Positions 56,818-61,351 of a stretch of DNA of 64,000 nucleotides are shown here, in pieces. Source of the DNA: a virus. Location: positions 64,001 to 128,000 of the IMG/VR virus record IMGVR_UViG_3300037245_001320, one strand, 5' to 3'. The position numbers were made by a program, and so were the translations under genes. Position 1 is the first letter of the stretch. Each line of letters starts with the position of its first letter. Under the pieces are notes generated by a model. That model did not search any database. It was not told where the DNA came from and was given only the letters and a program-made list of their open reading frames with translations.

Positions 56818-57668
56818 TAATTACTTTCCCTCTCCGCTCTTGCTTCTTCCTTTAAAGTAATAAGTCTATCAATAGCATTCTCTTCTGTTCTATCCTCTTT
56901 TAATAAAGCCTTCACTTCTAGATCAATCTGCTTCTTAATCTCTTTACCAAATACTTTCTTATCTTCATCTCTAGGACAAAACTCTTCACAGTACTGATTT
57001 TTAGCATCTGTTATTCCTGATGTTAATGCTGAAATATCCTCTTTAGTATCTGCAATTACTCTAACCAACTTCTTTAATACATCTAGCTGATCTTGTGCCG
57101 TGTATTCCTTATTACTCTTCCCTTTAAAAATCATCCTTACTCTCCTCTTGTTCTCTTTCTCTTCTTATCTTTATAGTGGTATAAGCTATCTACTCCACTA
57201 CAATCTTCATCTGCTATTTCACTACTTGTTATTAACCTGTCATTCTCTGATAGAACCCTTAAATAAGTTATAGCTTGATCCAATGGCATATCCCTATCAA
57301 ACTTCTTCACAATATCCCAAGCTGTAACTCCCCTTGGAGGAATCATGTAGGCTTTATTTGTAATAGGATCTATAACAGTTTCTCCTGTTTCAGGATCTTC
57401 TAGAGGACCACCTCTCATGTACTTCTTCAATCGACTTTTCAATTTCTTATTCTTTGTCAGAGTTTACTCCTTTATAGATTACTACATCAGTTACTTTGTT
57501 AATAGAGATAATCAACTTAGTCTTATGTTGAATAGGTAAGAGTTCTTTTATTCTATCTATATTTTCCTCTTCCATCTCAGCATTTACATAATCTGTATGA
57601 TCTATTAAGATAATAATTTCTGTGAAGTATTTGTCATTCTTACATACTTGTAGTTCTAGTGTTGTCAT
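56817..57668 (-). CDS. Three small ORFs (56817-57134 possibly a GapR/DsbA-like DNA-binding protein; 57137-57442; 57447-57668)
   Basis: Packed operon; family assignment weak. Confidence 0.45.
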
Positions 57669-58114
57669 TAGTGACTCCCTGTACTGCCATAAGCTCCTGA
57701 TCCTCTTTCTGTTTCCTTATTTAAAGAATCTACTTTTTTAAATACTGCCTCTGTTGTGGGAGCATAAACACCTTGACAAACTCTCATTCCGTGAGTTACA
57801 TAAAATGGTTTATCCCCTTCATTTCTAAGGATAATTCCAACTTCTCCCACGTAATCTTCATCAATTGTAGCAGTTCCCTGGGCAATAATCAAACCATGCT
57901 TTTTAGTTAAGCCTGATCTTGATCTTAATTGGACTTCATATCCTTCATAAATACCCATTTTAATACCAGAAGGTACAGTTACTGCTTCCCCTATACCTAT
58001 TCTAATGTCTTCATTAGGTGTGAATGCTTTTAAATCGAAGCCTGATGATTGTTTTGTGCCATATTCAGGCATGAACTCTTTTGTTTCTATTAGTAATTCT
58101 TTTTGATCTCTCAA
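57668..58114 (-). CDS. dut: Trimeric dUTPase
   Basis: SGFDL, RSRSGL, TIDEDY.GE, RVCQ and RGSGAYGSTG motifs. Confidence 0.93.
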   Translation of the reverse strand: MRDQKELLIETKEFMPEYGTKQSSGFDLKAFTPNEDIRIGIGEAVTVPSGIKMGIYEGYEVQLRSRSGLTKKHGLIIAQGTATIDEDYVGEVGIILRNEGDKPFYVTHGMRVCQGVYAPTTEAVFKKVDSLNKETERGSGAYGSTGSH

Positions 58115-58705: not shown

Positions 58706-58734
58706 AGTATACCACACTTTCAAGTAAAAGTCAA
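58706..58734 (-). promoter_or_regulatory. Sigma70-type promoter driving the 58.1-58.7 kb region
   Basis: TTGACT-17nt-TATACT with TG. Confidence 0.7.
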
Positions 58735-58890
58735 CCCCTTTTCGGAATATTTCTCAATTATTTTTTCAATTGTTATATCTTCTGGTAAATCCTTTAAAAT
58801 AATGCCTTCTAAACGACAGCTCTCCCGATAATTATCCTTTCTAACCTTCCTAATGAATTCTGCTTTCTCTTCAAAAGTCTTGTTAATCAT
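58720..58890 (-). CDS. YhfG/FicA-like Fic antitoxin (56 aa, not in the ORF track)
   Basis: MINKTFEEKAEFIRKVRKDNYRESCRLEGI... contains the (S/T)xxxE(G/N) Fic-inhibitory motif in YhfG-like context N(F/Y)..S.RLEG. Its start overlaps the upstream stop. Confidence 0.72.
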   Translation of the reverse strand: MINKTFEEKAEFIRKVRKDNYRESCRLEGIILKDLPEDITIEKIIEKYSEKGLTFT

Positions 58891-59085: not shown

Positions 59086-59592
59086 CTAATTATTTATTAT
59101 TAAGAAATTTTTATATAGTCTTGGAGTAATATCTCTCTGACTATAGATCCTTCTTAATATTTGTATAAGTGATTTATTATCTCTTTTATACAATCTATAA
59201 ATTCTTACTGATAAAGGAGCTTGTACATAAAGTATTAAATCACACTTTTCAAGTAAGGTTGATTTATGTAAAACAGCTCCGTTTAATATGCTGCTTCCTT
59301 GAATATCTTCTAAAACTTGTTTTGTTATTAAAGGATGAACAAAGTCGTTTAAAACTTTCATAGCTCTTTTTGATTTAAATACTATCTTAGATAATTCCTT
59401 GGGATTCCTATACTGATTAAAAGGTACACCACACGTAGTGAGTAATTCACAACTTATAGCAAACATGTTTTCATCCACTATCTTATGTCCGTACAAATCT
59501 AAATCAAAATGAGTATGTCCTGTTTTCTCACTTAGTTTCTCAGAGATATAATTCTTACCTGATCCTGATTTTCCCACAATACCTATATTCAT
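59086..59592 (-). CDS. coaE: Dephospho-CoA kinase
   Basis: IGIVGKSGSGKN P-loop, D.D..GH, L..IVF.....LN..VHP.I and V.AP..VRI.R...RD motifs. Confidence 0.82.
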   Translation of the reverse strand: MNIGIVGKSGSGKNYISEKLSEKTGHTHFDLDLYGHKIVDENMFAISCELLTTCGVPFNQYRNPKELSKIVFKSKRAMKVLNDFVHPLITKQVLEDIQGSSILNGAVLHKSTLLEKCDLILYVQAPLSVRIYRLYKRDNKSLIQILRRIYSQRDITPRLYKNFLIINN

Positions 59593-60545
59593 GACAGATA
59601 TTTCTCATATGCTTTTACACCAAATTCCTGTAATGATCTAATCATGGATGAAGAAATATGTTGTAGCTCAGGTTTACATGTAAAATAAACAACAGGGTTA
59701 TTAAAACCTGCATCAATTAAAGTCTGCTTCAAAGCTATCTCACTAGTTAAATCCTCTGTATTCCTTAATCCTCTTATCAGTGAATAGTTATTATCTTTAA
59801 ATACATCCACTAATAAACCATCATAGGAAATAAACTCCTGAATAGGATTTGCTATGTAGTAGGATTGTACTTTATCTCTGTTATGTCCTTGAGCAATAAT
59901 AACCTTATCAAAAACTCCCTCAGCTTGTGTAACAATATCTTCATGACCTATATGAAAAGGATTAAAACTTCCTGCATACACTCCTATCTTGTACTGCTTA
60001 TTAGTTACATAATTTATTAAAAAATCACAACTAATATACTCATCCTCACTAGATGTAAAATTATCTTGGTACTTTTTAAGGAATTCTAATCTTCCTTCTT
60101 TGTATTCCTCTAATGAGAACTTCTGATACTCATAAAAAATAGCATCTTCATATTGTATAAGCTTACAACCTTCTTCTTTGAATATAGCTGTATCTGCTTG
60201 AACAATCCAATTCTTATTATTATCTTCAAAATCTGCATAGTGCTTCTTTGTAGCTCTAATTAACTCTGCTACATACTGTCTATCAAAATCATTATCATCA
60301 GTATAGCAACTGTTACGATTAGGATCGCTATGTCTCAACCATGCCATTGCGGATCTTTCTTCATTATCATCTCTGGAAGGATCATATATAAAGTCATGCC
60401 ATACGATAGCATTAAATAAATGTTCATTCTGCGTTGGTCTGTTCAAACCACAGTATTCCAACATATTATAGATGTGCTGTATTGTATGAAATCTTCTGTG
60501 TGGTTCTGCATATGCTTTTAATACTTCTTCTGGTATATAACTCAT
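59589..60545 (-). CDS. coaD: HD phosphohydrolase (COG4339-like) fused to phosphopantetheine adenylyltransferase
   Basis: N-terminal Y.EPHR.FHT..HI, WHD.IYDP...NEERSA; C-terminal YAGSFNPFHIGH, LIRGLR...D...E and HISSSMIR. Confidence 0.82.
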   Translation of the reverse strand: MSYIPEEVLKAYAEPHRRFHTIQHIYNMLEYCGLNRPTQNEHLFNAIVWHDFIYDPSRDDNEERSAMAWLRHSDPNRNSCYTDDNDFDRQYVAELIRATKKHYADFEDNNKNWIVQADTAIFKEEGCKLIQYEDAIFYEYQKFSLEEYKEGRLEFLKKYQDNFTSSEDEYISCDFLINYVTNKQYKIGVYAGSFNPFHIGHEDIVTQAEGVFDKVIIAQGHNRDKVQSYYIANPIQEFISYDGLLVDVFKDNNYSLIRGLRNTEDLTSEIALKQTLIDAGFNNPVVYFTCKPELQHISSSMIRSLQEFGVKAYEKYLS

Positions 60546-60560
60546 TATATTATCTCCTTT

Positions 60561-60782
60561 TTAATTAACAGGGTGAAGTACTAAACTTCTTTTCTGTTTC
60601 TTTAATTCTTCCCAATCTTCTTCTGTGTAACAAGCTTCATCTGCTGTCCATTGCATTGATAATACATCTCCTGACCAAGTAGAATCAGGAAGATACACAC
60701 AATCTTTGTCTCCACCAGATAAAGGACTGTATCCATTACCCTCTGAATCTTTTAATAGACTTCTTAGTTCTTTTACATCCAT
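60561..60782 (-). CDS. Hypothetical protein
   Basis: D.EGNGYSP motif common in phage small proteins. Confidence 0.55.
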   Translation of the reverse strand: MDVKELRSLLKDSEGNGYSPLSGGDKDCVYLPDSTWSGDVLSMQWTADEACYTEEDWEELKKQKRSLVLHPVN

Positions 60783-61351
60783 CTAAGTAGTTCCTTCATC
60801 TTATAGGCAACAGCTCTAGTTAATACAATATCATCCATGGCATTATGTAAATTCTCCGTATTTAAGTCAAAATGTTTCCCTAAAGTTTCTAGTTTAGAAT
60901 TCTCTAGTTGAGGAATCTTGCCTGCCCATTGTAAAAAAGCTAAAGACTGATAAGTATCTATAAACTTTCCTGCCTGCACCCATGAAAACCAATAAGGATC
61001 GCCACAATGTTCAAAATAACTTTTCATCATGTTACTGTCGAAGATAACGTTTTGGCCTGCCAGCAAGAACTTATCTTCTTTCTTGTAAGGAGATACAAAC
61101 TCTTTCATAAAAGCTAGGATATCTTGACGCACTTGTTCCCTTGGCCTAAAGCTTTGTATCTGTTCGAGGGTGAATCCATTAACTTCCAGTGCCCCTTGCT
61201 CTATTTCTGTTCCAACTGGATTCATTTCAAAGTACTCTTTACCTTCAATTTTGCCATCAATCTCGGCTATTAAAGCAAGAGATATAATCCCATTCTTATT
61301 AAAATCCAAGCCTCCTGTTTCTGTATCACACCATAACAATTTTTCACTCAT
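60773..61351 (-). CDS. DEDDh 3'-5' exonuclease (DnaQ-like)
   Basis: DTETGGL, GQN..FD, IDT and LHNAMDD motifs. Confidence 0.88.
   Translation of the reverse strand: MSEKLLWCDTETGGLDFNKNGIISLALIAEIDGKIEGKEYFEMNPVGTEIEQGALEVNGFTLEQIQSFRPREQVRQDILAFMKEFVSPYKKEDKFLLAGQNVIFDSNMMKSYFEHCGDPYWFSWVQAGKFIDTYQSLAFLQWAGKIPQLENSKLETLGKHFDLNTENLHNAMDDIVLTRAVAYKMKELLRWM

Follow-up and report, generated by a model that had tools for sequence, protein, structure and literature searches.

Enzymes that catalyse the two final reactions of coenzyme A (CoA) synthesis, the phosphopantetheine adenylyltransferase (PPAT) CoaD and the dephospho-CoA kinase (DPCK) CoaE, have been reported from viruses. The genes coaD and coaE are among the abundant auxiliary metabolic genes (AMGs) of viromes, with a 'purpose not entirely known' (PMC11097641), and CoaD has been annotated in jumbo phages (PMC8093824). 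Among the genes of the CoA pathway, the one for DPCK is kept most widely in mycoplasmas, which live as parasites and have reduced genomes (PMC8721197). Here, a pair of overlapping genes encoding an HD-PPAT fusion protein and a CoaE homologue was analysed on a viral genome. The window, meaning the whole 64,000-nucleotide stretch under analysis, covers positions 64,001 to 128,000 of IMG/VR record IMGVR_UViG_3300037245_001320 (G000:C1:64001-128000), a 154,018-bp uncultured virus with a CheckV completeness of ~90%; the G+C content is ~34%. Both genes probably form a module, carried by the phage and coupled in translation, that covers the two final CoA steps; its most likely effect would be to raise or sustain CoA in infection.

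Gene layout of the module

A model's earlier reading of the locus (the original prediction) had described an HD-CoaD fusion gene overlapping a CoaE gene by ATGA, and both open reading frames (ORFs) were recovered as described, on the minus strand. The fusion gene (59589..60545, minus strand; 318 aa, stop codon included), delimited by its ORF, family matches and an AlphaFold2 (AF2) model, is preceded by an AAGGAG ribosome-binding site (60554..60559, minus strand) 8 nt upstream of the ATG. Its stop codon lies on the start codon of the CoaE gene (59086..59592, minus strand; 168 aa) within an ATGA overlap (59589..59592, minus strand), which suggests translational coupling; ribosome-binding site and overlap were both read from the sequence. 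The two genes are part of a long co-directional gene array in the window. The quoted motifs were located as well, with GSFNPFHIGH at aa 192-201, RGLR at 258-261 and ISSS at 297-300.

Assignment of the adenylyltransferase domain and the kinase

The C-terminal domain of the fusion (aa 183-318; 59592..59999, minus strand) was assigned as a PPAT (CoaD)-like adenylyltransferase via TIGR01510, phmmer against the Protein Data Bank (PDB) and Foldseek. The TIGR01510 coaD model matched aa 188-309 with 77.3 bits (E 1.3e-21), and PF01467 also matched the 318-aa protein. In the phmmer search, the 34 best matches were all phosphopantetheine adenylyltransferases (best E 1.5e-11). The AF2 model of the full-length protein (pLDDT 94.5, pTM 0.90) returned bacterial PPATs as all of its top 50 Foldseek matches (E ~1e-7, TM by target 0.60-0.73), with an rmsd of 2.5-3.7 A over ~140-150 columns in all but one match.

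The nucleotidyltransferase motifs HIGH (aa 198-201) and ISSSMIR (aa 297-303) are present. Comparison of 60 full-length homologues revealed G192, S193, F194, P196, G200, H201, K225, R258, G259, R261, D265 and S299 to be invariant, and H198 and E269 to be conserved in at least 90%. When aligned to PPAT structures, the invariant K225, R258, R261, D265 and S299 and the conserved E269 coincide with PPAT-specific substrate and transition-state positions; the counterparts of the fusion residues in the E. coli enzyme are presumably K42, R88, R91, D95, E99 and S129. Judged by sequence, the domain belongs to a divergent CoaD subfamily in which the helix that follows K225 is shortened, and it is predicted to convert 4'-phosphopantetheine and ATP to dephospho-CoA.

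The 168-aa protein scored 69.5 bits with the TIGR00152 dephospho-CoA kinase model, above the cut-off of 65.55, and 61 bits with PF01121. For both proteins, family scores of this size are well above what chance would give. Its ten best PDB matches were all DPCK, the top one being the T. maritima protein 2grj (E 3.4e-12), and the eukaryotic COASY structure 2f6r was a sequence match at E 2.9e-5. P-loop (GKSGSGKN), catalytic D32 and lid residues R130/R137 are in place; in the CoaE alignment, G7, G12, K13 and D32 are invariant and R130 and R137 at least 90% conserved. The word-index homologue search for CoaE gave only two close relatives, and the wider family was collected through profile searches of fetched loci. 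The Asn of the GKN Walker A motif is kept in four relatives at 45-56% identity (carriers listed: the window, P0121, P0122 and L001), and S, T or D stands at this position in other viral CoaE relatives. Because of its conservation in these four relatives, the GKN motif appears to be a maintained peculiarity and not decay. The kinase is predicted to phosphorylate the 3'-OH of dephospho-CoA to yield CoA.

The HD domain and its linkage to the CoA steps

The N-terminal domain (aa 1-170; 60036..60545, minus strand) was assigned to the HD-superfamily phosphohydrolases on the basis of invariant residues and a domain model. H24, H50, D51 and D118, which are invariant in 60 homologues, constitute the H...HD...D metal-binding signature. 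The N-terminal 160 aa matched phrog_19425 'phosphohydrolase' (E 1.9e-14). Pfam and NCBIfam searches gave no match for the HD domain of the window copy, PF01966 included; PF01966 did match the HD relatives P0163, P0174, P0207 and P0254 with 18-29 bits. The domain model is all-helical (pLDDT 95.5). Its best VIA-align matches were catalytic domains of cyclic-nucleotide phosphodiesterases (PDEs; Z 11-12.6), followed by the small HD hydrolases 2pq7 (Z 10.2), YedJ (Z 9.0) and YpgQ (Z 8.0) and by YqeK (8wmy, Z 6.3), and Foldseek against PDB returned weak HD/PDE matches (E 0.19 or worse). As modelled, the N-terminal domain is an HD-superfamily hydrolase with no close solved relative.

Standalone relatives of the domain (TM 0.84-0.86, 29% identity) carry the ESM Atlas/RefSeq labels 'HD domain-containing protein', 'metal-dependent phosphohydrolase' and 'NMDAR2C subunit'. 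The last of these labels is, we assume, the one attached to COG4339, which gives the 'COG4339-like' reading of the original prediction indirect support. A literature search on COG4339 and the bacterial 'NMDAR2C subunit' protein found nothing useful. Homology to the acyl carrier protein (ACP) phosphodiesterase AcpH (PF04336) was considered and rejected, with a probability of 0.3% in hhalign when the family profile was compared with E. coli AcpH, and with no match in Pfam; an activity analogous to that of AcpH is possible despite the missing homology. Two fusions to other domains are possible substrate clues: the HD family is also joined to a GNAT acetyltransferase in P0202 (475 aa; HD, then GNAT) and, in Actinomycetota, to DUF4031 (ESM Atlas cluster with PF13223).

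An exhaustive HMMER search with the HD domain by itself yielded 3704 cluster representatives, of which the best 150 were inspected. Among these, 137 were new: 96 standalone proteins (~180-260 aa), 38 HD-CoaD, 2 CoaD-HD and 1 CoaE-HD, so that the domain is fused to CoaD or CoaE in 41 of the 137 close representatives. In P0203, a canonical CoaD (TIGR01510 134 bits, above the cut-off) precedes the HD domain; in P0207, a canonical CoaE (122 bits) does so. At the viral loci L041 and L044, a separate HD protein overlaps a CoaD-CoaE fusion, L023 being similar, and L042 has the CoaD-CoaE fusion alone. A further variant is located on plasmid 2 of Variovorax sp. SRS16 (NZ_LR594667.1; L130, 3398-5130), where a CoaE-HD protein (405 aa) and coaD (172 aa) overlap by ATGA; the 405-aa protein, annotated 'dephospho-CoA kinase', consists of CoaE (1-166) and HD (199-371).

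At least four permuted architectures tie the HD family genetically to the PPAT and DPCK steps. The functional linkage of HD, CoaD and CoaE put forward in the original prediction gains from these independent permuted fusions (HD-CoaD, CoaD-HD, CoaE-HD and split HD with CoaD-CoaE). Since three domains occur in four permuted arrangements, the HD enzyme would be expected to work with PPAT and DPCK (Rosetta-stone evidence). The Variovorax operon of CoaE-HD and coaD looks accessory, with hypothetical genes around it on a secondary replicon of 801 kb, and its arrangement was matched in three further Variovorax strains.

The fusion in bacteria

The HD-CoaD architecture was retrieved in 643 homologues at ~95% coverage and at no fewer than 434 places in bacterial genomes (at least 434), mostly in Bacteroidota with some Verrucomicrobiota and Lentisphaerota. 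Cultured carriers include Mucilaginibacter gossypii, Raineya orbicola, Thermonema rossianum and Xanthocytophaga flavus. The latter three are Cytophagales, and none of their genomes has a TIGR01510-like gene other than the fusion (92-101 bits). Each of these genomes has two PF01467 genes interpreted by size and score only, one of ~200 aa as NadD and a longer frame as RibF, as well as a 159-170-aa PF01467 protein, which in Raineya and Thermonema is RfaE-II by TIGR02199 (209-216 bits, above the cut-off). One canonical CoaE is encoded per genome, on another contig. By elimination, because no other TIGR01510-like gene was found in these genomes, the orthologous fusion would supply the essential PPAT activity in the three Cytophagales. 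No other evidence speaks as strongly for 4'-phosphopantetheine as the substrate of the subfamily as this sole-PPAT status, which concerns the orthologues and not the phage copy.

Of 61 Bacteroidia sampled at the class level, 56 carry a canonical CoaD instead of the fusion; Mucilaginibacter has both the fusion and a canonical CoaD. ORFs of ~201-224 aa in Bacteroidia loci L088-L102 from metagenome-assembled genomes (MAGs) represent a third form of the PPAT subfamily, in which the metal site is lost. In the sampled genome G047, the only CoaD-like match is in a 209-aa open frame, similar in size to such a form with a remnant HD domain.

Conservation of the module in viruses

Viral and cellular labels of loci are those assigned by IMG/VR and as MAGs. 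The nearest relatives of the fusion are metagenomic (52-62% identity), and the contigs of the two nearest carry a CoaE homologue. An overlapped CoaD-like/CoaE pair was found in L001 (125-kb contig, 52% identity), L003, L008 and L013; the 4-nt ATGA overlap is conserved in five loci and kept in these four. In a maximum-likelihood (ML) tree of 67 fusions, obtained in a quick search and including several long viral branches, the window protein fell into an all-viral clade with L001, L004, L003, L008 and L013. SH-aLRT values were 97-98 for the grouping of the window protein with L001 and L004, and 84-91 for the deeper nodes with L003, L008 and L013. Viral/cellular labels change 4 times on the tree, compared with 20.4 times for shuffled labels.

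In 16 of 43 viral loci, CoaE lies next to the CoaD-like gene (12) or is fused with it (4; L023, L041, L042, L044), in contrast to 0 of 81 cellular loci (Fisher p = 5e-9, the loci being not fully independent). In five of the 81 cellular loci, CoaE lies ~4-5 kb off on the opposite strand. The survey of co-occurrence in related phages thus speaks for the original prediction, the CoaD/CoaE pair being kept and 16 of 43 viral loci being coupled. Among GenBank phages, megablast of the region gave no match, and CoaE-like genes were present in 7 records only; one of these, LR745206.1, also has a CoaD-like match, with the two genes ~116 kb apart. CoaD annotations were found in jumbo phages of Caulobacter, Brevundimonas and Microcystis.

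Proposed function and alternative explanations

We conclude that the genes are real and probably provide a CoA top-up during infection. The PPAT domain would adenylylate 4'-phosphopantetheine to dephospho-CoA, which the kinase would then convert to CoA, and the HD domain may act on a phosphorylated intermediate or by-product of the PPAT/DPCK steps. Its preferred role would be to feed or clean the 4'-phosphopantetheine/dephospho-CoA pool, by precursor-releasing salvage or damage control; ranked second is a CoA 3'-phosphatase activity opposing DPCK, comparable to the hydrolase/synthetase pair of SpoT, and ranked third the removal of pyrophosphate (PPi) or 3',5'-ADP. With its own, possibly feedback-insensitive copies of the late-step enzymes, the phage could raise or sustain CoA. 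In line with a module for the late steps only, searches of the phage revealed no CoaBC and no PanK of type III, the one PanK type searched, and precursor 4'-phosphopantetheine would therefore have to come from the host. We found no earlier account of the HD-PPAT subfamily or of its place as the one PPAT candidate of certain Cytophagales, of an HD family locked to PPAT and DPCK in permuted forms, or of a virus-specific coupling or fusion of PPAT and DPCK activities.

Several observations weigh against this interpretation. The PPAT domain stays below the TIGR01510 equivalog cut-off (77.3 vs 103.3 bits) and is devoid of ~13 residues of the helix that follows the K42 position (K225 here). The kinase is ~30 aa shorter than canonical CoaE, and its Walker A motif GKSGSGKN (aa 6-14) has Asn for the canonical Ser/Thr, which is unusual in an active P-loop kinase. 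CoA users were not obvious in the phage, with neither GNAT nor ACP found, which leaves its need for CoA unexplained. In some Bacteroidia, a ~201-aa form has only the last ~40 HD-profile positions left ahead of PPAT, and these remnant-HD forms imply that HD catalysis would be accessory and dispensable for PPAT function. The gene contexts of standalone HD relatives on plasmids were uninformative on the HD role.

The low PPAT score, the shortened CoaE and the atypical Walker A motif would also suit a recent host capture that is decaying and without function in the phage. This is very improbable, given nearest relatives that are viral, 52-62% identical and retain the pair, the position of the fusion in an all-viral clade, catalytic residues that are all intact, a GKN motif kept in four relatives at 45-56% identity, and the 4-nt overlap conserved in five loci; a degenerate capture absent from related phages, which the original prediction had named as an outcome that would speak against it, is not what was found, the clade being all viral and CoaE being retained. 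A pathway to NAD+ instead of CoA, in which an NMN adenylyltransferase (NMNAT) and a nicotinamide-riboside kinase would make up a split NadR-like pathway (of the type of phage NAD+ reconstitution pathway 3, NARP3) or a NARP2-type pathway, is disfavoured and in our view improbable. The HxGH region does resemble NadM/NadR, with weak NCBIfam NMNAT matches (18-22 bits, aa 180-234), the combination of adenylyltransferase and P-loop kinase is the NadR architecture of phage NARP3 (PMC13464706), and CoaD-like genes of viral relatives adjoin NAMPT and Prs. Yet the PPAT model scores 77 bits domain-wide compared with 22 bits or less for NMNAT/NadD models, which cover the first 40-50 residues only, and the PPAT-specific K225, RGLR arginines and D265 are invariant, with E269 conserved in at least 90%. 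All top PDB sequence and fold matches are PPAT, NadR (6gye) reaching only E 0.019, and the kinase passes the CoaE equivalog cut-off while matching no NadR or RNK model. The NAMPT-containing locus L037 encodes an NMNAT-Nudix protein of its own (313 aa, PF01467 + NUDIX) and L041 a 310-aa Nudix protein plus a separate 371-aa PF01467 protein; the window phage is without NAMPT, Nudix and PnuC and has one PF01467 gene only; and the three Cytophagales combine the fusion as only PPAT candidate with a separate ~200-aa PF01467 gene (NadD by size/score). Sequence, residue and fold evidence for PPAT and DPCK thus upholds the identification of a CoaD-like/CoaE pair over a pair of NMNAT and dNMP kinase. Even less probable is a role in RNA-end or cap chemistry, with HD as a 2',3'-cyclic phosphodiesterase or decapping enzyme and the CoaE-like protein as a ribose 3'-kinase on RNA or RNA capped with dephospho-CoA (dpCoA), alongside repair of the RtcB/Thg1 type. 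HD domains of CCA-adding enzymes have such RNA activities, 9 viral loci encode Thg1 no more than 6 kb away, RtcB and Thg1 are near the module in L001 and Thg1 in L003, and the window phage encodes RtcB; but this RtcB is ~65 kb from the module and Thg1 is absent, the kinase does not resemble polynucleotide kinases, and the PPAT domain, the PPAT-CoaE fusions and the housekeeping role in Cytophagales would be left unexplained.

Counter-defence, in contrast, would refine the biological role and is compatible with the CoA enzymology favoured here. An effector would degrade or modify CoA, or strip or block 4'-phosphopantetheine carriers, the HD enzyme would make a substrate for PPAT/DPCK, and CoA would be rebuilt; we regard this as unlikely, a minority possibility kept alive by the island context and the precedent of NARP1 plus a phosphatase. 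The genomic islands of viral relatives hold Nudix (11 loci), Thg1 (9), NAMPT (6), Macro (6), SIR2 (6) and Prs (5) genes, L003 has the anti-Pycsar protein Apyc1 and Thg1, L001 has RtcB and Thg1, and a YhfG-like homologue of Fic antitoxins lies two genes downstream in the window. An accessory copy of the three-domain module is found on the Variovorax plasmid as well, and NARP1 with Adpp against aRES is a case of salvage plus phosphatase repairing a defence-modified intermediate (10.64898/2026.01.28.702374). On the other side, a CoA- or ACP-targeting defence was not found in the literature, AMGs cluster in early regions of phages for non-defence reasons too, the window phage itself is without NAMPT, Nudix and PnuC, and certain bacteria use the fusion as a housekeeping enzyme. 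We know of no CoA- or ACP-targeting defence system. In a PADLOC search, neither the fusion nor the kinase matched any defence-system model at E <= 0.01, which likewise counts against counter-defence. With no PADLOC match and no CoA-directed defence in the literature, the suggestion that the module counters a CoA-depleting defence was not supported. Nor did support emerge for a modulation of dpCoA capping or for the particular HD activities suggested in the original prediction. The anti-defence neighbourhood that had been proposed fared better in part: it is suggestive in relatives, where NAMPT, NMNAT-Nudix, Macro, SIR2, Thg1, RtcB and Apyc1 occur near the module, and weaker in the window. A shade less likely than counter-defence in general is its specific form, a three-step CoA reconstitution by HD, PPAT and DPCK as the CoA counterpart of NARP, in which HD would convert a product of immunity or infection stress to 4'-phosphopantetheine or dephospho-CoA; candidate HD substrates would be modified or cleaved CoA, carrier-bound phosphopantetheine and dpCoA-capped RNA. 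Were this so, an antiphage mechanism directed at CoA or ACP would be awaiting discovery.

CoA is no less central than NAD+, but no conflict between virus and host over it is known to us. Phages, unlike cells, package PPAT and DPCK as one coupled module, often in islands of NAD+ salvage and RNA repair, and this offers a testable handle on the HD role in CoA metabolism and on the investment of large phages in late CoA synthesis. Counter-defence, if true, would open a new cofactor front in the conflict of phage and bacterium; plain metabolic boosting would make the module an ordinary AMG pair with an unusual domain.

Neighbouring genes

Directly upstream of the module, a DEDDh (RNase T-like) exonuclease of 192 aa is encoded (60773-61351, minus strand); it matched the PADLOC model 'DEDDh, CAS-associated' (E 1.5e-17), and a homologous RNase_T gene is also near the CoaD/CoaE pair of L001. 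Two genes downstream of CoaE lies a YhfG-like ORF of 56 aa (58720-58890, minus strand), identified by PF10832 at 31 bits, above the cut-off, so that the antitoxin-like neighbour named in the original prediction is indeed present. YhfG is an antitoxin-like partner of Fic AMPylases, and the 56-aa ORF could neutralise Fic-type toxins or defence proteins. The same co-directional array includes a dUTPase (57668-58114, minus strand).

In four viral relatives (L027, L028, L032 and L037), a standalone CoaD-like gene is located in an island in the order NAMPT, Macro, SIR2, a 121-aa protein of no assignment, the CoaD-like gene, Prs, Thg1, a ~520-aa protein with a faint Hen1_N match, and Nudix; it looks like an island for NAD+/ADP-ribose and tRNA repair in which the CoaD-like gene is embedded. 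In L003 (7639-8412 and 96-608), a protein of the Apyc1-like metallo-beta-lactamase fold is encoded two genes downstream of CoaE, with a Macro-domain protein, a metallophosphatase, a Zeta/AAA_33-type kinase and an isochorismatase nearby.

Comparison with known systems

The published reports of viral coaD and coaE as AMGs are at the annotation level and describe neither HD fusion nor gene coupling nor a permuted module (PMC11097641; PMC8093824). The phage pathways NARP1, NARP2 and NARP3 (10.1101/2024.02.11.579819; PMC13464706) resemble the module in being compact operons that rebuild an ADP-containing cofactor, and they share genomic islands with it in several viral relatives. They differ in cofactor and enzyme families, and a defence target has been demonstrated for NAD+ but none is known for CoA.

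Bacterial CoaD (TIGR01510, EC 2.7.7.3) and CoaE (TIGR00152, EC 2.7.1.24) have the same folds and motifs as the phage proteins, for which the same two consecutive reactions would be expected. The bacterial genes are not adjacent (0/81 loci), whereas the phage pair is overlapped or fused; moreover, the phage PPAT is divergent with an N-terminal HD domain, and the phage CoaE is ~30 aa shorter with a GKN Walker A motif. NadD-YqeK, fused in proteins of the PRK07152 type, likewise joins a cofactor adenylyltransferase of the same superfamily to an HD hydrolase, but its HD family and domain order differ from those of the phage fusion and it belongs to the NAD pathway. YqeK is an Ap4A hydrolase, an activity that need not apply to the phage HD domain. 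The metal-dependent DUF89 damage-control phosphatase of PANK4, fused to a CoA-pathway enzyme, is said by Huang et al. 2016 to act on 4'-phosphopantetheine derivatives. It could plausibly serve as a model for what the HD domain does, but is an analogy only, the DUF89 fold being unrelated to HD and PANK4 being eukaryotic and placed at another pathway step. COASY, the eukaryotic PPAT-DPCK fusion (PDB 2f6r), is without an HD domain, and its PPAT domain is of the eukaryotic/archaeal and not the bacterial CoaD type. It is a true fusion, compared with the translational coupling in the window, and like the fused viral relatives it links the two final CoA steps physically.

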